DNA of 64,000 nt, from assembly GCA_050173015.1 (NCBI GenBank), contig JBFXLE010000011.1, positions 1 to 64,000 of the forward strand, in the 5' to 3' direction. Position 1 is the stretch's first letter. Each line of letters opens with the position of its first letter. The notes under the pieces are model-generated. The model was given only the letters and a program-made list of their open reading frames with translations. It made no database searches and was not told the DNA's origin. This stretch comes from Calditrichaceae bacterium (GTDB lineage: Bacteria; Calditrichota; Calditrichia; Calditrichales; JBFXGD01). Shown here piece by piece: positions 40,646 to 47,759 of the stretch. The translations under genes and the position numbers were made by a program.

Positions 40646-42481
40646 GTGGGGTATAAAAGCACAGCGGAATGTGTGAATGATCTGGAAAAACATGGTCATC
40701 TTATAAAAATAAAAGAAGAAACAGATCCATATCTGGAGATGGCGGAAATTCAGAGAAGGGTTTATGAAGCGGACGGGCCCGCAATATATTTTGAGCGGGT
40801 AAAAGGGAGTCCTTTTCCTGCCGTGTCAAATCTGTTTGGATCCTTAGCCAGAGCAAAATTTATCTTTAGGGATACTCTTGATGCTGTAGAGAAATTAGTC
40901 GCTCTTAAAGGTGATCCCTCCCTGGCGGTAAGAAATCCATCAAAATGGAGCGCCATTTCAAAAACTTTGTATCATTCATGGCCGAAAAGAGTCTTCGGGG
41001 GCCCGGTACTTTCCCAACAAACAACGATCGATCAATTGCCGCAGATCCAATCCTGGCCCGGGGATGGGGGTGCGTTTATCACCCTTCCTCAGGTGTACAC
41101 TGAGCATCCCGAATTTCCGGGTATTATGAAATCTAACCTTGGAATGTATCGAATTCAGCTTGCCGGTAACCGTTATGAATTGAATCATGAAGTGGGGCTG
41201 CATTATCAGATCCACCGGGGAATTGGAACCCACCATGCCGCCGCGTTACGTAGAGGTGAGCCTCTTAAAGTCAGTGTCTTTGTCGGAGGCCCGCCCGCTA
41301 ATACTTTCGCGGCGGTGATGCCTTTACCCGAAGGACTGCCGGAGGTTGCTTTCTCGGGCGCTCTGAACGGCAGACGTTTCAGGTATTTACGCAGAAAAGG
41401 ATATACAATCGCGGCAGAAGCCGATTTTTGCATAACCGGTACGGTAACGCCGGGCGATCTGCTTCCCGAAGGGCCCTTTGGAGATCATCTTGGATATTAC
41501 AGCATGAAACATGATTTCCCGGTGCTTAAGATCGATAAAGTGTATCACAGAAGGGATGCGGTCTGGCCTTTTACGGTAGTCGGCAGGCCACCACAGGAGG
41601 ATACGGTTTTTGGACAGCTTGTTCATGATATCACCGGACCGGTAATTCCTGAAACCATTGCCGGGTTAAAGGCTGTCCACGCGGTTGACGCCGCCGGAGT
41701 CCATCCGCTATTGCTGGCCATCGGCAGCGAGCGTTATGTGCCCTATGAAAATGACCGTCAACCCCGCGAAATTCTGACAATCGCTAACGCCATCCTTGGA
41801 TTTGGACAATTGTCACTGGCGAAATATTTGTTTATTACCGCGCGGGAAGATAATCCCGGGTTGAATATCCACGAGATTGATGAATATCTAATGCATGTCT
41901 TTGAGCGGGTGGATTGGAAACGTGATCTTCATTTTCAGACAAATACCACCATTGATACTCTGGATTATTCCGGCACCGGATTAAATGAAGGGTCCAAGGT
42001 AATTATCGCGGCAGCAGGAAGAAAGCGCCGGACTCTTTTACAGAAATTACCGCTAAATTTGAAGCTCCCCGATGACTTTAACGATCCAAAGTTAGTCATG
42101 CCGGGGGTTATAACCATAAAAGGTCCAAAATTTGAAGAAACAAAATTCGGATATCAGGCTATGGAACAACTTAACGCATGGCTGGATACCCACAAGGGCG
42201 TGGGCGGAATCGCGATGATCGTGGTGGTCGATGACAGTAAATTTGTTTCTCAGAACCTGAAAAATTTCTTATGGGTGACATTTACAAGATCAAATCCGTC
42301 CCATGATATTTACGGAGTCGACAGCTTTTCTTCTCATAAACATTGGGGATGCGGCGGGCCGTTGATTATTGATGCCAGAATCAAGCCGCATCACGCGCCT
42401 CCGCTTGTCGAGAATCCGGAAATCACTAAAAGAGTGGATGCTCTCGGCGCCAGGGGCGGTAGTTTGCACGGAATAATTTAG
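40646..42481 (+). CDS. UbiD family prFMN-dependent decarboxylase
   Basis: DGGAFITLP, NLGMYRIQ, EGPFGDHLGYY and VVGRPPQED; GTG start. Confidence 0.93.
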   Translation: MGYKSTAECVNDLEKHGHLIKIKEETDPYLEMAEIQRRVYEADGPAIYFERVKGSPFPAVSNLFGSLARAKFIFRDTLDAVEKLVALKGDPSLAVRNPSKWSAISKTLYHSWPKRVFGGPVLSQQTTIDQLPQIQSWPGDGGAFITLPQVYTEHPEFPGIMKSNLGMYRIQLAGNRYELNHEVGLHYQIHRGIGTHHAAALRRGEPLKVSVFVGGPPANTFAAVMPLPEGLPEVAFSGALNGRRFRYLRRKGYTIAAEADFCITGTVTPGDLLPEGPFGDHLGYYSMKHDFPVLKIDKVYHRRDAVWPFTVVGRPPQEDTVFGQLVHDITGPVIPETIAGLKAVHAVDAAGVHPLLLAIGSERYVPYENDRQPREILTIANAILGFGQLSLAKYLFITAREDNPGLNIHEIDEYLMHVFERVDWKRDLHFQTNTTIDTLDYSGTGLNEGSKVIIAAAGRKRRTLLQKLPLNLKLPDDFNDPKLVMPGVITIKGPKFEETKFGYQAMEQLNAWLDTHKGVGGIAMIVVVDDSKFVSQNLKNFLWVTFTRSNPSHDIYGVDSFSSHKHWGCGGPLIIDARIKPHHAPPLVENPEITKRVDALGARGGSLHGII

Positions 42482-42526: not shown

Positions 42527-43885
42527 ATGAGCAGAAAAATAGTAGTCATCGGCGGTGTTGCCGCGGGTATGTCCGCTGCAAGCAGAGCCAGAAGAAATGA
42601 TCCTGATGCATCGATCATTGTCTTTCAGAAAGAAAACGCGGTTTCTTACGGATCCTGCGGTTTACCCTATTATATTGCTGACGATATCAAAGAAGCTGAA
42701 ACTCTGATTGCCATTTCAGCAGATGAATTCAGGCAGAAACGAAATATTGAAGTCCGTTTAAATCACGAGGGAATATCCTTTAATCCCAGGGAGAAGACGG
42801 TCGAAATACGAGATCTCGGGACAGGGATGATTCATGACTATCCTTATGATAAATTAATTATTGCCACCGGCGCGCGGGCGGCGTTACCTCCCATTCCCGG
42901 CAAAGAATTAAAAAATGTTTTTGTGGTCAGAAATCTGACCGACGGACAGAACATAAAATCACACATCGAGAATGATCGTCCGGCAACTGCGGTAGTTGTG
43001 GGCGGCGGCTATATCGGTCTGGAAATGGCCGAAGCTCTCTCAAGGCAGGGGCTTCGTGTTTCGGTTGTCGAGGCGCAGGAACGGGTTATGCTGAACATAG
43101 ACCCTGAATTATCTGAAAAAATTGAATCAGAAATGGAAGAAAAAGGGTGCAAAGTATATACTTCAAACGGTGTTCAGGCCATTCTCGGCTCCGATCGTGT
43201 AAATAGTGTGCGTTTAATGAACGGGGATGAGATTGCCGCTGACATGGTGATTTTATCGGTTGGAGTAAAGCCAAATGTTGAATTTGCAATTACCGGAGGC
43301 GTACGTACAGGAAAAACCGGCGCCATAGAGGTCAATCAGAAAATGGAAACAAATGTCCAGAGCGTATATGCCGCGGGTGATTGCGCGGAAGTAAAAAATC
43401 TGGTTACGAATAAAATGGATTATATCCCATTGGGGACAACAGCCAATAAACAGGGGCGGGTTGCGGGTGATAACGCCAGCGGCCGGTTTGCCAGATTTTC
43501 GGGTGTGGCAGGTACAGCGGTGGTGAAAATTTTTGATCTGGAGGTGGCGCGGACGGGAATCACAACCACACAAGCTCTAAATTTAAAGATGAATCCACGT
43601 TCCGTGATGATAACCGGTAAATCAAGGGCGGGATATTATCCCGGTAAAGAAGATATTACCCTGAAATTAATATTCCGTGGAGATAACGGCCGGTTACTCG
43701 GCGCTCACATGATGGGTAAAGAAGGGGTAGCAAAACGGATTGATGTTTTCGCGACAGCTTTACAGCAAAAAATGACAGTGATGGAAATCTCAGAACTGGA
43801 TTTGAGCTATGCTCCGCCGTATGCTCCGGTATGGGATCCGATACTGATCGCCGCAAATCAGGCAGCTAAGTCATTCGAAAAATAG
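42527..43885 (+). CDS. CoA-disulfide reductase / NADH oxidase family flavoprotein
   Basis: GGVAAGMSAA, SYGSCGLPY (single redox Cys), GGGYIGLE, YAAGD and YAPPY. Confidence 0.9.
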   Translation: MSRKIVVIGGVAAGMSAASRARRNDPDASIIVFQKENAVSYGSCGLPYYIADDIKEAETLIAISADEFRQKRNIEVRLNHEGISFNPREKTVEIRDLGTGMIHDYPYDKLIIATGARAALPPIPGKELKNVFVVRNLTDGQNIKSHIENDRPATAVVVGGGYIGLEMAEALSRQGLRVSVVEAQERVMLNIDPELSEKIESEMEEKGCKVYTSNGVQAILGSDRVNSVRLMNGDEIAADMVILSVGVKPNVEFAITGGVRTGKTGAIEVNQKMETNVQSVYAAGDCAEVKNLVTNKMDYIPLGTTANKQGRVAGDNASGRFARFSGVAGTAVVKIFDLEVARTGITTTQALNLKMNPRSVMITGKSRAGYYPGKEDITLKLIFRGDNGRLLGAHMMGKEGVAKRIDVFATALQQKMTVMEISELDLSYAPPYAPVWDPILIAANQAAKSFEK

Positions 43886-43892
43886 ACCGGTC

Positions 43893-44426
43893 TCATCGCT
43901 CAATATAATTTTTTAGCGAGGATAGATTCAAATTTATCAGCTCATTGAATGCGGGCCGGACAATTATAAAGTCCATTAGTTTTGACAGTACGGGAGGCGC
44001 CATATAAGTGATTTCCCAAATGGCTTCCGTGCTTCCGTCCGGTAGTGCTTCCAGTACAATGGACTGCCGGATATTATGAATTAACGATTTCCTTACCGTA
44101 TCGATCTGAGTAAAAGTGATCCGGTCAGATGACTCGTAAATTTCTATCCGTTCTTTAATTTTCAGCTCTCTTCCGATGATTGAATAATCTACAACACGCA
44201 GGGATTTATTAAGTGAGACTTCGGGATAAAATTCTATCTGCCGTATAGATTTATACCAATTCGAATATTCATTTGGTCCGGTAACCGCTGCCCAGACAAC
44301 CGTTTCGGGCGCCTCAATTGTAATCGATTTCCTTATACTGGTTTCGGGATTTAATATGATCCCGGTTACTAAAATGATAGAAAATAGTACGATAAGAATT
44401 GCTGAAACCACAGCTGAAGTTTTCAT
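43893..44426 (-). CDS. SRPBCC/START-like protein with N-terminal TM anchor
   Basis: SITIEAPETVVWAAV...W motif; ATGA overlap with the upstream gene's stop at 44423-44426. Confidence 0.75.
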   Translation of the reverse strand: MKTSAVVSAILIVLFSIILVTGIILNPETSIRKSITIEAPETVVWAAVTGPNEYSNWYKSIRQIEFYPEVSLNKSLRVVDYSIIGRELKIKERIEIYESSDRITFTQIDTVRKSLIHNIRQSIVLEALPDGSTEAIWEITYMAPPVLSKLMDFIIVRPAFNELINLNLSSLKNYIER

Positions 44427-45202
44427 CTGATTAAGAGCATCTTTTTGGTATGGATTTGTTTTTGTCCCGTCAGACGGTAATAATATAATCCTGACGCGGC
44501 CGGGATACCGTTTTCGGACTGTCCGTCCCATAGAACGGTGTGTCTGCCCGTATTGTATATTCCGTCTGCCAGGCTACGAACTAATCTACCCCGGCTGTCA
44601 AAAATTTGCAAACTAATTTTTTGAGGACGGTCCAGTGAGAATCTGATGGTGGTTTCGGGATTAAAGGGATTGGGAAAATTGTGATTCAGCACAAAACTGA
44701 TCGGATTTTCGGGACCGGAATCAACTGATGTTGCCAAAAGTCCGTCGATGGAAGCCCTGATATCGGAGATGTTTACGCCAAATCTTAAATATCTGATAAT
44801 TCCTTCCTGATCGACCACTACACTGTAATCATTAGCAACCTTATATGCAGCGCCGGTTTGTTGTCCGTTAAGCAGCAGAGGGTATTGAATCCCTGTACTG
44901 TTTTTAAAACTTTGGAGCTGTGAAGAGTTTCCGTTATAGTAATCAATTCCAACCGCCTGAAAAACGGTTTCACTATAATTATCCGCGATTTGGGTTTGCG
45001 TACTGCCGCCGGCAGCGAGACAAGACGGTCAATTGTATCCGACAAAAAATAGATAGATTACTTTGCCTTTATAATCACTGAGTTTAAATGTGCCTCCGTC
45101 CAGCCGGTTTAAAGTAAAATCGGGCGCCGGATCGCCTACCCCGGCAGTCAGTCCCGCTGAAAGGAGAAGTACCAATATTAACGGGAGAAACTTCGATTGC
45201 AT
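44423..45202 (-). CDS. Probable selenoprotein: signal peptide + AhpC/TSA-TlpA-like redoxin (UxxC) + Por/T9SS-type (FlgD-Ig) C-terminal domain, 259 aa
   Basis: Manual translation from ATG 45202 gives MQSKFLPLILVLLLSAGLTAGVGDPAPDFTLNRLDGGTFKLSDYKGKVIYLFFVGYN-TGA-PSCLAAGG..., continuing in frame into ORF 44423..44818 (NFPNPFNPETTIRF...TKKMLLIR). The only internal stop is at the catalytic Cys position. Confidence 0.85.
45002..45016 (-). promoter_or_regulatory. Candidate bacterial SECIS hairpin
   Basis: Minus strand GCTGCC-GGC-GGCAGT stem-loop; the G-starting loop begins 19 nt after the UGA. Confidence 0.6.
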
Positions 45203-45221
45203 TATATATCCTCATTGTATG

Positions 45222-46736
45222 TTAAAATAGACTATTTAAGCGAAATTCTAATCCTTCAAACGGCTGCACCTGATAACATATTCCGCCGGTACACGCATTA
45301 CCCCCGCGCCGTTTCCCATAGAATAAGGCGGTAGAATGATTCTGATTAATCTGATAATTCAGGCTGAATCCAAGCCATGATTTGTAAATATCATTTTGAA
45401 GCGGATTTAGGGTGTTGTTTTCTACCGGATCATTTGTCAGTTCAAACGCCAGACCACCCGCCAGATTCGGAGCGCGAGTGAACGACAAGCCAAGGTATCC
45501 GTTTTTTGTGGTGTGATTTTGCTCCTGATTAAATCGGTAGTTTCTGTCAAATTTTTGCGCCTGAATATCAACGGCAAGGCTCCAGATGCTGAGAAAATCA
45601 TGCTCCAGGGTGATTCCCGCTGTCATCCGCTCATAAACATCGATGATCGGATCCTCTGACCAGTTAATAAAAGGTCTGATCAGAAAGTAGTCATTCAGGT
45701 AATAATTGATGTCAGCATGATATTCCTGAAATGTGCGCTTAAAGCTGCCGAATTCATTAGTGGCTCTGGCGTGGTTTAGCGTTAATGTATTAAGTCCGTT
45801 GAGATTTATCAGGCTTTCGAGCTGAAAACCGCGTTCATCCTGCGGCTCGACCGAATGGGTGCTCCTGTTCAATAAAATGAAGGAATGCTCCCGGACAAGC
45901 TGCGGTGGATCATTAAAATTGAGAGTAAACTCATGATAATCCTTATATTCGGCTATTATGCTTATACGGTTATAACTAAAACTTACCGATGAATAGAAAG
46001 CATGCCGGCTTTCTGTGCCCAATCTAAAAGGATCATTCGCGTCATCCAAATCCTGGACATATTCCACGTAGTATTGACTTCCGGAGATACCGTTGCCACT
46101 CAGGTTGAACCCTCCGAATTCGGTGATCTCATTCTGGTAATCCTGACGGAGATACAACAGGCCGGGGGTCATTAAATTCCCTAAAGAAAAATTGATTTCA
46201 CCTGCCTGAAGCAGGTTTGGGCGTCGCAAATCACGGTCATTTGTCGGCGGGCGTGTTAAGTCAAGAGGTTTTCCGTATAATACTTTCGCCTGAAAAAAAT
46301 CTCCGGTATATCCCGCCGAAACTCCTTCTATATCCTTGAAGAAACCGTAATGTTGTCTTGTACCAATGTCTTCAAAAGTAACACCCGGTATCTCATAAGT
46401 GCGCAGCAGGAGACCGCGTCCGAGAATGTCAAAAAAGTTTCCAAGCCTGATCTGAAAATGGTTGTTTTGGAATTTTATATATTTTTGAGAGATTTGATTA
46501 TACCGGTGGTCATCATTGGTGACCTCGAACGATTCAGTACGCAGACCGGCACTGAAATTATTATACCGATAATCCAGATTCATCTGATTGTATAAATTGT
46601 AATGCGCGGGCTGGCCACTGTCCGGGATGTTTCCCAGTTGATATTCAAGACGGTTGGATACGGAGATTTGGCCTGATGTGATTGCGCCGGTGAATAGAAT
46701 CAGAACTAAAGGAAGCAAATAATACTTATTTTTCAA
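45222..46736 (-). CDS. DUF6029-like outer-membrane beta-barrel protein
   Basis: Signal peptide; GNFFDILGRGLLLR and EYKDY...FNDPPQLVREH; C-terminal YGKRRGGNACTGGIC...RLNSLF ending in Phe. Confidence 0.8.
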   Translation of the reverse strand: MKNKYYLLPLVLILFTGAITSGQISVSNRLEYQLGNIPDSGQPAHYNLYNQMNLDYRYNNFSAGLRTESFEVTNDDHRYNQISQKYIKFQNNHFQIRLGNFFDILGRGLLLRTYEIPGVTFEDIGTRQHYGFFKDIEGVSAGYTGDFFQAKVLYGKPLDLTRPPTNDRDLRRPNLLQAGEINFSLGNLMTPGLLYLRQDYQNEITEFGGFNLSGNGISGSQYYVEYVQDLDDANDPFRLGTESRHAFYSSVSFSYNRISIIAEYKDYHEFTLNFNDPPQLVREHSFILLNRSTHSVEPQDERGFQLESLINLNGLNTLTLNHARATNEFGSFKRTFQEYHADINYYLNDYFLIRPFINWSEDPIIDVYERMTAGITLEHDFLSIWSLAVDIQAQKFDRNYRFNQEQNHTTKNGYLGLSFTRAPNLAGGLAFELTNDPVENNTLNPLQNDIYKSWLGFSLNYQINQNHSTALFYGKRRGGNACTGGICYQVQPFEGLEFRLNSLF

Positions 46737-47232
46737 CTTTACTCTCCGGCGAATTTAATATTTTTAGGATTTCCTCTTCAATGATATTTTCATCTCCGGA
46801 ACGGTAGCCCTTGTGGATATAAATGATTTCACGATCACTGTTGATAATCAGCAGGGTTGGTATGTTGATGATGCCCAGTTCGGAGGCAAAGGAGCTGTTA
46901 GGGTCAAGAAGAATGGGATAACTTATTTTATAAGTCTTTGCGAAGGGTTTAATTTTGGCGGAATTACGCGGGCTGTCCACATTGATTCCGATAAACGCAA
47001 CGCCGCTATTTTTAAATTGTTCGGAAAGTTTGTTCAATTTTGGAAGCGCTTTCGCACAAGGTTTGCACCAGGTGGCCCAAAAATCAATAACAGTTACATT
47101 CCCGCCTTTCAGTTCAGAAAAATTTGTCCATTTATTGTCGATATTTTTTAATTTAAAATCAGGGATAGTTCTTCCGGCCAAGACGGTTTGCAACAGAATA
47201 AGAGTGAAATATATCATAAATCTGGAACGCAT
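46726..47232 (-). CDS. TlpA family disulfide reductase (exported thioredoxin)
   Basis: Signal peptide, PDFKL, IDFWATWCKPC, YPILLD and IPT. Confidence 0.93.
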   Translation of the reverse strand: MRSRFMIYFTLILLQTVLAGRTIPDFKLKNIDNKWTNFSELKGGNVTVIDFWATWCKPCAKALPKLNKLSEQFKNSGVAFIGINVDSPRNSAKIKPFAKTYKISYPILLDPNSSFASELGIINIPTLLIINSDREIIYIHKGYRSGDENIIEEEILKILNSPESKVEK

Positions 47233-47384
47233 ATTTGTTACCTCGTTCTATTTTATATATATTATTTACTAAAGAGTCTAAGAAAGACTAACGCAGGTTT
47301 TTCCCAAAACATTCTAATAACTTGAATTGTTCACGCTTATCATACTAATTTGATGAATCAAAGATATTTAACTTCAGATTGTTC

Positions 47385-47759
47385 ATGAAAAAAAAACTAA
47401 TCGAACTAAACGAAGGATTAGATAATCAGCATGTCAACCTGCTCTGTCTTGAAGTAGGAAGAGATATTCAGGTAATACTCAGCGGTGGTGCGTCCCATAT
47501 CGGCGCGATCGGATTGGGTGTGTGTTATGACAGTGATAAGGCAAACTCATCGGTAATTGCCGTTCACGGTCACAAAGAGGACGATCTTGTAAAAAAAGCG
47601 GCATACAGGTTAAGCAAGGCATTAAGAAGAAACGTAGCTGTTTCGGCCGGCATTCATTATGATGATTTAACCGGTAATGATATCTCTGCAATTCTCGCCA
47701 ATGCGGATCTATTGATTGACCGGTTAATAGAATTGCTCGAAAAAGACTCTAATCGTTAG
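47385..47759 (+). CDS. LpdD-like (prenylated-flavin chaperone / PAC-like) protein
   Basis: GRDIQVILSGG.SHIGA, GHKED and V.AGIHYD pattern. Confidence 0.7.
   Translation: MKKKLIELNEGLDNQHVNLLCLEVGRDIQVILSGGASHIGAIGLGVCYDSDKANSSVIAVHGHKEDDLVKKAAYRLSKALRRNVAVSAGIHYDDLTGNDISAILANADLLIDRLIELLEKDSNR

Follow-up and report, generated by a model that had tools for sequence, protein, structure and literature searches.

We found that a gene appearing as separate pieces in a mechanical list of open reading frames of a Calditrichaceae bacterium is in fact one gene of 259 codons followed by a terminal TGA, and we confirm that an in-frame TGA takes the place of the first Cys in its CxxC motif. [quoted passage not shown] The gene occupies positions 44423..45202 of the window, i.e. 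the whole stretch of 64,000 nucleotides that was analyzed, and lies on the minus strand, as do all the features given below. It was delimited by translation, by Pfam/NCBIfam matches and by orthologs carrying either TGA or a Cys codon. Its product begins with a putative signal peptide, continues with a UxxC redoxin domain and a linker, and ends in a sorting domain of T9SS type A.

The in-frame UGA codon and its decoding

The ATG start codon is located at 45202-45200 and is preceded, at a distance of 7 nt, by a GAGG resembling a ribosome-binding site (45210..45213, read from sequence), both in agreement with the original prediction. Translation from this ATG to the terminal TGA (44425-44423) encounters a single in-frame stop, the TGA at 45031-45029. 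This UGA (45029..45031), which we read as selenocysteine (Sec), is codon 58 and falls, as proposed, at the first position of the redox motif U-P-S-C, within the residues ...LFFVGYN-U-PSC-LAAGG.... In an alignment with solved thioredoxin-fold proteins, U58 pairs with the first Cys of WCPPC (3kcm) and of WCGVC (2ls5). The mechanical list of open reading frames gives only the pieces 45029..45202 (57 aa) and 44423..44818 (131 aa), so that the gene was rightly described as broken in it. The expectation that annotation pipelines would split the gene was also borne out, as public protein collections hold fragments of 151-208 aa that begin just past the CxxC. When 1.84 billion proteins were searched, truncated look-alikes accounted for 16 and two-domain proteins for 89 (a count read from the table) of the best 150 cluster representatives.

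The two fragments of the list speak for an explanation without a selenoprotein, in which the TGA would have arisen by nonsense mutation or assembly error or would be read as another residue. We give this explanation almost no credence. The TGA is unchanged in the contigs of 4/4 other public runs, which come from four studies, and it recurs in this column in 22 of the phylum's genomes, which argues against the sequencing error that had been considered earlier. Orthologs, defined by E ≤ 1e-35, were present in 33 of the 86 genomes of the phylum; 22 have TGA at this column and 11 have Cys and are without any stop. The TGA forms in 22/86 genomes, together with the look-alikes among the best 150 representatives, indicate that gene callers systematically hide such proteins. 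One same-order relative, whose TGA form reads FGYS-U-PFC, has a closed genome of 4,978,541 bp. The ortholog of genome G026 carries extra stops and appears broken, a second point on the side of a nonsense mutation or error. However, TGA co-occurs with selA. In the set of the 41 nearest genomes, 13/14 of those with the TGA form and 0/10 of those from the Cys-only family have a detected selA, the counts overstating independence because the compared genomes are relatives of one another. Codon 58 is Cys or TGA, and never Trp, in 17/17 aligned full-length homologs, and the second Cys is likewise invariant (17/17). The 19 invariant columns of this 17-sequence alignment are spread over the whole length, so that conservation persists on both sides of the TGA, as anticipated for a gene that is read through. 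Cys stands at this column in six full-length database homologs. Finally, TGA does not generally act as a sense codon, because the selenoprotein gene itself terminates at TGA and 14 of the 17 PF00578 matches of the genome lack an internal stop; both facts count against the decoding of the TGA as another residue.

The Sec machinery that the original prediction proposed to look for is present in the genome. It comprises a tRNA-Sec with anticodon tca (69.2 bits vs a cut-off of 47), selA (516 bits) and selB (362 bits), each above its curated cut-off, and two copies of selD above the curated cut-off, one of which itself contains a TGA.

A SECIS-like hairpin, GCUGCC-GGC-GGCAGU (45002..45016), is found 12 nt downstream of the UGA, at +15..+29 from its U. 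The loop GGC at 45010-45008 corresponds to +21..+23 counted from the U and begins at the 19th base after the TGA, where the loop had been placed. The hairpin thus has a G in a small apical loop just 3′ of the UGA, the feature by which the bacterial SECIS is defined in the accessible text of PMC1088965. The energy of the single sequence is unremarkable, since its fold over 57 nt (−11.9 kcal/mol, z = 0.46) was equaled by 134/200 dinucleotide shuffles, and this is the third point in favor of a TGA without Sec. Because this energy is not significant against dinucleotide shuffles, comparative tests were used. The hairpin was present in 19/19 Sec forms examined, with a GG loop about 21 nt from the U, and was weak or absent in 7 Cys forms; the loop GG doubles as a conserved Gly codon, and coding therefore explains part of its conservation. 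The mean energy of nucleotides +12 to +35 was −7.1 kcal/mol in the 19 Sec forms vs −2.4 in the 7 Cys forms. At most 5% of the synonymous-codon shuffles matched the observed energy in 8/19 Sec forms and in 0/7 Cys forms, the other 11 of the 19 Sec forms failing to beat 95% of the shuffles. Among 12 Sec forms of the same register, 88.9% of the cells pair and compensatory changes occur in 4/6 pairs; the observed percentage paired was equaled by 0/500 shuffles and the covariation score by 1/500. The genome also carries a TxxU Prx selenoprotein gene and another UxxC redoxin. Both of these and SelD have GGU/GGUC loops at +20..+24. An Rfam scan of 44850-45150 with E ≤ 10 returned only a chance match, BTH_s1, at 10.5 bits vs a gathering score of 74; as no curated family reached threshold, the scan is neither for nor against a SECIS.

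The redoxin domain and its known relatives

Residues 22-158 (44729..45139) form a ResA/TlpA-like thioredoxin-fold redoxin domain, as defined by Pfam, AF2, Foldseek and PDB profile searches. The folded domain begins at about residue 22 in the model, with pLDDT values of about 87-96 over the domain and a helix at 59-71 directly after U58. In Pfam, AhpC-TSA (PF00578) matches residues 22-138 across the TGA (8.3e-16, 58.5 bits) and FlgD_ig matches residues 184-247, which upholds the proposed thioredoxin-fold start and FlgD-Ig C-terminus. PF08534 (1.1e-12, 48.4 bits) is, like PF00578, above its cut-off. The top Foldseek match is ResA (1su9; TM 0.86 on target, rmsd 2.0 Å, 135 columns), and the profile of the family matches 2ls5 (1.6e-23), ResA 4nmu (1.1e-18) and Etrx2 (1.9e-12) in the PDB. 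The cis-Pro position of the thioredoxin fold is occupied by Asp in the alignments, which is atypical.

Our protein would share its working mode, that of a thiol-disulfide oxidoreductase, with the ResA/TlpA family. It resembles Bacillus subtilis ResA (1su9/1st9), TlpA and CcmG in its fold and the place of its CxxC and, by prediction, in its signal peptide and extracytoplasmic location. It differs from ResA by Sec instead of the first Cys, by a dipeptide P-x (UPSC; CP[FY]C in many Cys forms) instead of x-P, by the Asp at the cis-Pro position and by the added C-terminal sorting domain. Despite the common fold, it does not count as a member of the NCBIfam ResA subfamily (NF002854), for which it scores 40.1 bits against a cut-off of 170. 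Among solved proteins, the nearest in sequence is the solution structure 2ls5, which represents a putative protein disulfide isomerase from Bacteroides thetaiotaomicron and in which the aligned cis-Pro position is not Pro either. It differs in being a Cys form (WCGVC), and its solved chain of 159 residues includes no sorting domain. Etrx2, a surface-exposed thioredoxin of Streptococcus pneumoniae (4hqz/2yp6; TM 0.79 on target), is another redoxin located outside the cytoplasmic membrane, where it serves in the repair of oxidized surface proteins. It is, however, a Cys-containing lipoprotein of a Gram-positive bacterium, with no outer membrane, T9SS or barrel partner.

As an alternative to a thiol-disulfide oxidoreductase, the protein might be a Sec peroxidase of the peroxiredoxin type, clearing peroxides at the envelope. 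AhpC-TSA is its best Pfam family, weak matches to thiol peroxidase and PrxU models were obtained, Bcp-type peroxiredoxins are among the fold matches, and Sec peroxiredoxins exist, one of the TxxU type in this very genome. This function is nevertheless improbable, because the motif is a UxxC at the thioredoxin position and not the TxxU/TxxC of peroxiredoxins, the alignment contains no invariant Arg, the PrxU model (NF040737) gave 17.7 bits vs a cut-off of 270, and the best fold and sequence matches are ResA-type proteins.

We favor a thiol-disulfide oxidoreductase, and UxxC Prx-like redoxins are an already known selenoprotein family. ‘Prx-like’ selenoprotein families appear in the available text of PMC1088965 and PMC2398784, and that of a 2026 review (PMC13188914) lists Prx-like thiol:disulfide oxidoreductase selenoproteins (PF00578, UxxC/UxxU) as ‘predicted with high confidence’. 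Our protein combines a PF00578/PF08534 domain with a UxxC (G-Y-N-U-P-S-C) and is without TxxC/TxxU. As far as the accessible portions of these sources describe the family, it shares with it the AhpC/TSA-Redoxin domain, a Sec that opens a thioredoxin-like UxxC in place of the TxxU of peroxiredoxins, the frequent occurrence of Cys homologs and a bacterial SECIS whose small apical loop contains a G. Compared by description, the T9SS sorting domain, the predicted surface location and the putative DUF6029 partner set it apart, as they are unmentioned in those portions; the words ‘sorting’, ‘T9SS’, ‘FlgD’ and ‘secret’ are absent from the text of PMC13188914. The original prediction had overlooked the known status of this family, as well as the conserved operon with the DUF6029 barrel described below.

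The operon and the DUF6029 barrel

The first gene of the operon (46726..47232) encodes a TlpA/ResA-like thioredoxin of 168 aa with a WCKPC motif and a signal-like N-terminus (PF00578, 6.5e-27; 97.5 bits for the ResA subfamily, under the cut-off of 170). It overlaps by 11 nt the start of the gene for a DUF6029 outer-membrane beta-barrel of 504 aa (45222..46736; PF19494, 6.7e-24), which ends in ...RLNSLF and is the upstream neighbor of the selenoprotein gene at a distance of 19 nt. The barrel carries a C-terminal motif ACTGGIC, of which the Cys pair (C482, C487) is invariant in 12/12 and 28/28 aligned homologs. Downstream, a gene for a 177-aa SRPBCC (Polyketide_cyc2) protein (43893..44426; PF10604, 1.9e-09) has an ATG that overlaps the terminal TGA of the selenoprotein gene (ATGA); a segment in the N-terminal part of this protein is hydrophobic. 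The order TlpA-DUF6029-redoxin was found in 13/19 extended loci of relatives and the SRPBCC gene downstream in 10/19, while 6/19 have the redoxin-CTD gene and no DUF6029 within about 3.6 kb upstream. The same order TlpA-DUF6029-redoxin occurs in another phylum, in Balneola sp. EhC07. A contig scan with the redoxin alignment gave three relevant loci among the 80 listed, including Balneola and a Latescibacterota MAG, the rest being mostly distant generic redoxins.

The interaction between the redoxin and the barrel was modeled on a Cys-form ortholog pair (P0150 + P0003) of another organism, about 46% identical to the proteins of the window and judged cognate solely from both sitting on 19,640-bp contigs; the partner alignment comprised 8 rows. 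The complex reached a score of 0.80, compared with 0.02 for the best of three controls, and this mark is attained by 58/80 solved complexes and 2/110 mismatched pairs. At least 86% of the contacts agreed between runs, and the partner pLDDT was at least 89. Among the residues of the modeled interface are those flanking the CxxC and, on the barrel, 474-475 and 484, which flank C477/C482 (ortholog numbering). The barrel segments of this interface are all on the face opposite the C-terminus. The ortholog barrel model has a pLDDT of 88.1 and a DSSP string of 25 strand elements; as this count is odd, the assignment of the face as extracellular, made with the C-terminus-anchored topology only, is tentative. 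A fold search with the barrel returned porins, ushers and AlgE at low similarity only (TM ≤ 0.56), and no solved complex of a barrel with a thioredoxin. The model supports binding in this pair, and the DUF6029 barrel of the window is the partner on which the redoxin is predicted to dock.

Predicted export and site of action

By inspection, codons 1-21 (45140..45202) encode a putative Sec-type signal peptide, MQSKFLPLILVLLLSAGLTAG, with a charged start, a hydrophobic run and the ending ...LTAG, residues 1-20 being of low confidence in the model. The redoxin domain is followed by a low-confidence linker (residues 159-179, pLDDT < 50; 44666..44728) and by a C-terminal beta-sandwich sorting domain of the T9SS type A/FlgD_ig type (residues 176-259; 44426..44677). 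This tail scores 37.3 bits vs a cut-off of 23 with the NCBIfam model of the T9SS type A sorting domain (TIGR04183). The genome encodes PorU (833.3 bits), PorV (270.6) and SprA (868.2 summed), all above cut-off, these being the three components that the search for a T9SS covered. Moreover, 54 of the 64 matches of the whole protein in its own genome are in the tail alone, in other open frames. The export proposed originally is supported by this signal-like N-terminus, the sorting domain above cut-off and the PorU/PorV/SprA genes, and the selenoprotein appears to be exported to the cell surface. [quoted passage not shown] The likeness is one of architecture; in those parts HBP35 is Cys-based, described as hemin-binding and mentioned with no link to DUF6029.

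Alternatively, the selenoprotein could reside in the periplasm and behave as a ResA/TlpA-like enzyme, for example to form or reduce the Cys pair of DUF6029 while the barrel is assembled, and the Ig-like C-terminus would be a module for binding or anchoring and not a signal for export. The ResA/TlpA relatives are extracytoplasmic and not surface proteins. The Pfam models of T9SS tails are narrowly under their cut-off of 27 (PF18962 Por_Secre_tail, 25.7; CHU_C, 26.4), and FlgD_ig (PF13860, 1e-09) is the best Pfam match of the tail. In addition, the cluster of family f2 relatives also contains a paralog of 170-180 aa that has no tail, and the Balneola version is tail-less as well (175 aa). We nevertheless find this location unlikely, given the match to TIGR04183 above its curated cut-off, the 54 other open frames with a similar tail, the PorU, PorV and SprA genes, and a modeled barrel interface situated entirely opposite the C-terminus.

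Returning to the surface-exported selenoprotein, SelB and tRNA-Sec would decode UGA 58 as selenocysteine with the downstream hairpin as guide. The resulting ResA/TlpA-like thiol-disulfide oxidoreductase, of the ‘Prx-like’ redoxin type, would have U-P-S-C as its active site. The product would cross the inner membrane via its signal peptide, and its type A tail would then direct it through the T9SS to the surface. There, the co-encoded barrel would most likely receive the redoxin on its extracellular face, bringing the selenol/thiol active site of the redoxin close to the invariant Cys-x4-Cys hairpin of the barrel. Selenylsulfide/disulfide exchange would follow with the Cys pair of the barrel or with a substrate passing the barrel. 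The computations show the Sec/Cys pairing, the SECIS hairpin, the decoding genes, the arrangement of the domains, the synteny and the T9SS genes; for the host organism we infer selenium insertion, export and docking, together with the direction of the electrons and the substrate.

A T9SS-tailed selenoprotein and a DUF6029 barrel module were not found in print, and supplementary selenoproteome tables may list such proteins. Searches joining Calditrichaeota with selenocysteine, or Calditrich- with type IX secretion, returned no literature, and those joining selenoprotein or selenocysteine with type IX secretion or T9SS nothing relevant among records that were in part titles in a listing.

Known bacterial selenoproteins are cytoplasmic or periplasmic redox enzymes. 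The type IX tail would put a selenol catalyst on the surface or outside the cell, a site to which the high reactivity of Sec and its resistance to irreversible oxidation would be suited. A more far-reaching proposal, which we regard as doubtful, sees the seleno-redoxin as an extracellular cap that the T9SS delivers to the DUF6029 barrel. Its partners in an undescribed thiol/selenol relay across the outer membrane would be the invariant Cys-x4-Cys hairpin of the barrel, the membrane-anchored SRPBCC protein and the periplasmic TlpA-like thioredoxin, the last of these fed by a membrane protein of the CcdA/DsbD type that is encoded at another place in the genome. The relay would belong to a module existing with Cys, lipoprotein or T9SS variants in Calditrichota, Balneola and probably other FCB-group bacteria. 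If true, this relay would provide the first function for DUF6029, and its selenoenzyme would be the first known from bacteria with a site of action at the cell surface. DUF6029, an uncharacterized family of outer-membrane barrels, is tied to thiol-disulfide chemistry by its place in the conserved operon, its invariant Cys pair and the strong docking score.

Decoding of codon 58

The selenoprotein gene starts at ATG 45202 on the minus strand, behind a GAGG at 45213-45210 that was read from the sequence, and runs for 259 sense codons to a terminal TGA at 44425-44423. Its sole interruption is the TGA at 45031-45029 (codon 58), and in a mechanical ORF list the gene appears only as pieces of 57 and 131 residues. 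The original prediction of a single frame broken in the ORF track was confirmed by translation and by two Pfam matches that span the TGA, AhpC-TSA (residues 22-138, 8.3e-16) and Redoxin (residues 22-146); a FlgD_ig match covers residues 184-247. As had also been proposed, the TGA is the first position of the CxxC motif, in the context FFVGYN-U-PSC-LAAGG. Ten of the 12 listed orthologs with TGA at this column (loci L035-L047) also terminate in TGA, and the three listed full-length two-domain Cys forms (L041, L043, L046) terminate in TAA. In at least six loci this last TGA falls at the start of the SRPBCC gene that follows (in the window the two overlap as ATGA), and this may account for the choice of stop codon.

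The selenocysteine machinery, for which a search had been suggested, is all present in the own assembly (4.34 Mb, 54 contigs, 97.5% complete): tRNA-Sec (Rfam 69.2 bits, cut-off 47; ARAGORN anticodon tca), selA (516.1 bits), selB (362.1 bits) and two selD genes, one itself TGA-containing. This selD (G000:C2:247845-248780, locus L020) has its TGA in the context SCAG-U-ASK; the second (C27:38679-39602) lies inside a 738-aa open frame, suggestive of a fusion. Six full-length database homologs carry Cys at the codon 58 column (CPTC, CPHC, CGSC or CPFC). In an alignment of 10 TGA and 7 Cys forms, this column, always TGA or Cys, and the second Cys were invariant, and conservation extended on either side of the TGA through both domains.

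Within the phylum sample (86 genomes of one class, ortholog threshold E <= 1e-35), 33 genomes have orthologs; a TGA lies within the match in 22 of these and the match is stop-free in 11. One of the 22 copies (genome G026) has additional stops and is apparently broken. In the set of the 41 nearest genomes, selA was found in 13 of the 14 with TGA forms, the exception (G037) being 81% complete, and in none of the ten genomes of family f2, all of which have stop-free homologs only. This is the pattern that Sec/Cys replacement predicts; since the genomes are kin, it represents few evolutionary events and not 24 independent ones. A sequencing error at the TGA was also considered: four other public runs, each of a different study, have contigs with the same codon at 45029-45031, without any difference, one of these runs (coded X2) being near-identical and possibly related to the source of the window. 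We conclude that codon 58 is a selenocysteine codon. Genome-wide recoding of TGA was rejected, because the gene's own stop is TGA and 14 of the 17 PF00578 matches in the genome are stop-free.

At window position 45214, one base is absent from the contigs of all four other runs. It lies immediately 5' of the GAGG, within the 19 nt that separate the end of the DUF6029 gene from the start of the selenoprotein gene. The difference affects no frame; either the strains differ here or this assembly has one base too many. A TGA also occurs in the tail-less upstream paralog of one relative (G020:C46:4095-4487, 179-aa frame) and, in another relative, in a related redoxin domain within a 664-aa open frame (G008:C209:312-698); this redoxin family may therefore have acquired Sec repeatedly.

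Searched with a profile, 1.84 billion representatives yielded 521 proteins at E <= 1e-30. The best 150 of these include 89 that carry both domains in a single stretch of about 245-293 residues (read from the table) and 16 short proteins (151-208 aa) that start just past the CxxC. The short protein P0278 matches the C-terminal part of the TGA-form ortholog of genome G010, the start residue excepted. These findings indicate that gene callers shorten Sec forms, and they bear out the expectation of mis-annotated fragments. The redoxin-plus-tail architecture itself is common as a Cys form. The metagenomic relatives P0251 and P0262 carry two or three tandem copies of the redoxin domain, one form being of 388 aa with repeated CPYC/CPFC units and the other of 730 aa with two units split by Ig-like repeats.

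A hairpin downstream of the TGA

The SECIS-like stem-loop GCUGCC-GGC-GGCAGU is present at 45016-45002 (minus strand) as originally described, with a G-starting loop that begins 19 nt past the TGA. The 57-nt stretch of the window, taken alone, folds no better than its shuffles (z = 0.46; 134 of 200 equal it). The comparison was extended to 26 distinct sequences, after loci failing the motif filter and identical 96-nt contexts had been dropped. A hairpin was found within nt +12 to +35 in all 19 Sec forms, with a mean of -7.1 kcal/mol versus -2.4 kcal/mol in seven Cys forms (Mann-Whitney p = 0.0003, overstated because of relatedness). Synonymous-codon shuffles matched the observed energy in at most 5% of 1000 trials for 8/19 Sec forms and 0/7 Cys forms. 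Loop size and register vary among the Sec forms while the hairpin stays (GGC, AGGUA, GGUCC, GGUGGG). For the 12 Sec forms in the same register, 88.9% of cells pair, and four of the six pairs have changes on both sides; the percentage paired was equalled by 0 of 500 shuffles and the covariation score by 1 of 500, and every slid control was lower. The constancy of the loop GG comes partly from coding, since it is also a conserved Gly codon.

Downstream hairpins with GGU/GGUC loops at +20 to +24 also follow the TGA of selD and of two further TGA-containing genes of the own genome (each at locus L159 or L160), a TxxU peroxiredoxin (C3:167315-167713, FTFV-U-ATE) and a UxxC redoxin (C4:235035-235472, GGW-U-PYC). 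The shared loop type and distance fit the recognition of all four TGA-containing genes by one SelB.

Fold, family and export

The AlphaFold2 model, built from the 17-row alignment (mean pLDDT 81.8), predicts with confidence a thioredoxin-fold domain (residues 21-150, block pLDDT about 87-96), which is followed by a disordered linker (159-179) and a seven-strand beta-sandwich (184-257). Foldseek placed the N-terminal domain nearest to Bacillus ResA 1su9 (TM 0.86 on the target, rmsd 2.0 A), followed by the Bacteroides putative disulfide isomerase 2ls5 and the pneumococcal surface thioredoxin Etrx2; a sequence profile search of the PDB was concordant (2ls5, 1.6e-23; ResA 4nmu, 1.1e-18). Aligned to the solved thioredoxin-fold proteins 3kcm and 2ls5, the codon 58 column is the first Cys of WCPPC and WCGVC. 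The UxxC is at the thioredoxin position, whereas peroxiredoxins have TxxU, and no invariant Arg was found in the 17-row alignment. Unlike classical thioredoxin folds, the protein has Asp at the cis-Pro position. We describe it as working like ResA/TlpA and do not claim membership of the ResA subfamily, as the score of 40.1 is far under the NCBIfam cut-off of 170. The P-x dipeptide and CP[FY]C, the latter seen in 13 of 38 Cys forms retained by the motif filter from the best 150 of 521 database matches, are not of TlpA type. The selenoprotein is a redoxin of the 'Prx-like' type, and passages of three sources treat UxxC Prx-like redoxins as an already established predicted selenoprotein family (PMC13188914, PMC1088965, PMC2398784).

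The N-terminus, MQSKFLPLILVLLLSAGLTAG, resembles a Sec signal peptide by inspection, and NCBIfam identifies the tail as a T9SS type A sorting domain (TIGR04183, 37.3 bits, curated cut-off 23), with the Pfam tail models slightly under cut-off. The whole protein has 64 matches in its own genome, 54 of which involve only the tail and lie in other open frames; the genome also encodes PorU (833.3 bits), PorV (270.6) and SprA (868.2 summed), each above cut-off. The earlier claim of an exported enzyme is strengthened by the signal-like N-terminus, the tail and these secretion genes, and from these sequence features we infer export itself. HBP35 of Porphyromonas gingivalis, described in parts of two papers as a Por-secreted protein with a thioredoxin motif and a C-terminal domain (PMC2907840, PMC3120885), is a Cys precedent for thioredoxin-type T9SS cargo, whereas the present protein has Sec.

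Our literature search, with supplementary lists outside its scope, found no paper linking selenoproteins to type IX secretion and none on selenoproteins in Calditrichota; a 2026 review (PMC13188914) has no mention of sorting, T9SS, FlgD or secret. Other predicted secreted selenoproteins, which are serine proteases, have been described from ocean metagenomes (PMC2398784). UxxC Prx-like selenoproteins are known, while their joining with a T9SS tail and their occurrence in Calditrichota were not found in the literature.

The operon and its DUF6029 barrel

The selenoprotein gene belongs to a tight operon of four genes on the minus strand. First comes a TlpA/ResA-like thioredoxin with WCKPC (46726-47232), overlapped by 11 nt by the DUF6029 gene (45222-46736), whose 504-residue product ends in LNSLF; the selenoprotein (44423-45202) lies 19 nt beyond, and its stop is overlapped by the ATG of the last gene (43893-44426), which encodes an SRPBCC protein whose N-terminus is hydrophobic. 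The flanking genes, all on the plus strand, encode a convergent pyridine-nucleotide-disulfide oxidoreductase of 452 aa that ends 8 nt from the operon (42527-43885), a UbiD-family decarboxylase (40646-42481) and, divergent from the operon start, a PAC_bac proteasome-chaperone-like protein (47379-47759). The order TlpA-DUF6029-redoxin recurs in 13 of 19 extended loci from relatives, with SRPBCC next in 10/19 and DUF6029 absent nearby in 6/19, and the cassette accommodates both Sec and Cys redoxin forms. The same order is present in Balneola sp. EhC07, of another phylum (locus L055, 1968-4504), where the redoxin has 175 residues, CPHC and a lipobox-like FTLNC, without the T9SS tail. These sequences suggest alternative modes of anchoring, by lipobox or by T9SS tail, for the same partner.

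DUF6029 has been likened, in the part of PMC9603273 concerned, to Wzi-like polysaccharide porins on HHpred evidence. The C-terminal motif GGNACTGGICY, with its two Cys, is invariant in 12/12 Calditrichota orthologs and in 28/28 wider homologs, Bacteroidota-labelled ones included; the closest homolog is 83% identical. In an AF2 model of an ortholog of the barrel (pLDDT 88.1, pTM 0.83) the two Cys face each other across a beta-hairpin turn.

The complex was modeled on a Cys-form stand-in pair, barrel P0150 and residues 18-152 of redoxin P0003, whose genes are probably neighbours, as both lie on 19,640-bp contigs and are nearest the same relative. The pair scored 0.80 and the best of three controls 0.02; among solved complexes 58 of 80 attain this mark, and among mismatched pairs 2 of 110, a rough guide as custom alignments were used. 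Runs shared at least 86% of contacts, with partner pLDDT of at least 89. No similar complex was found among solved structures, the barrel fold matching porins, ushers and AlgE at TM <= 0.56, so that a score from a memorised structure is unlikely. The modeling supports binding of the redoxin to the barrel.

The interface comprises 92 contacts. On the redoxin it involves residues 54, 56-57, 59-61 and 63-64, which flank C55/C58, together with 85-101 and 110-122; on the barrel, 34, 36, 120-122, 157-162, 266-268, 289-294, 322-329, 359-361, 393-401, 432-440, 474-475 and 484, the last two segments flanking C477/C482. The C-terminus of outer-membrane barrels is periplasmic, and sides were assigned by counting strands back from it. 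All interface segments from 120 on belong to connections of extracellular parity (119-124, 154-170, 264-295, 325-326, 358-361, 394-402, 430-446, 479-480), and none to those of periplasmic parity. Tentatively, the redoxin would dock on the extracellular face, the odd strand count of the model (25) leaving the N-terminal part ambiguous; a redoxin delivered to the surface would fit this assignment.

Our computations show a UxxC redoxin that is Sec-decoded and bears a T9SS tail, and whose gene shares a conserved operon with that of a barrel carrying a conserved Cys pair. We propose that the selenoprotein, once exported, would cap the DUF6029 barrel, where its selenolate would attack a disulfide, either in the Cys hairpin of the barrel or in a substrate at the pore; the resulting selenylsulfide would be released by the resolving Cys61. 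The enzyme could act as a reductase, an isomerase or an oxidase. On the inner side, the periplasmic TlpA-like protein could serve as electron donor or acceptor, and could itself be fed by one of the two DsbD_TM proteins of the genome.
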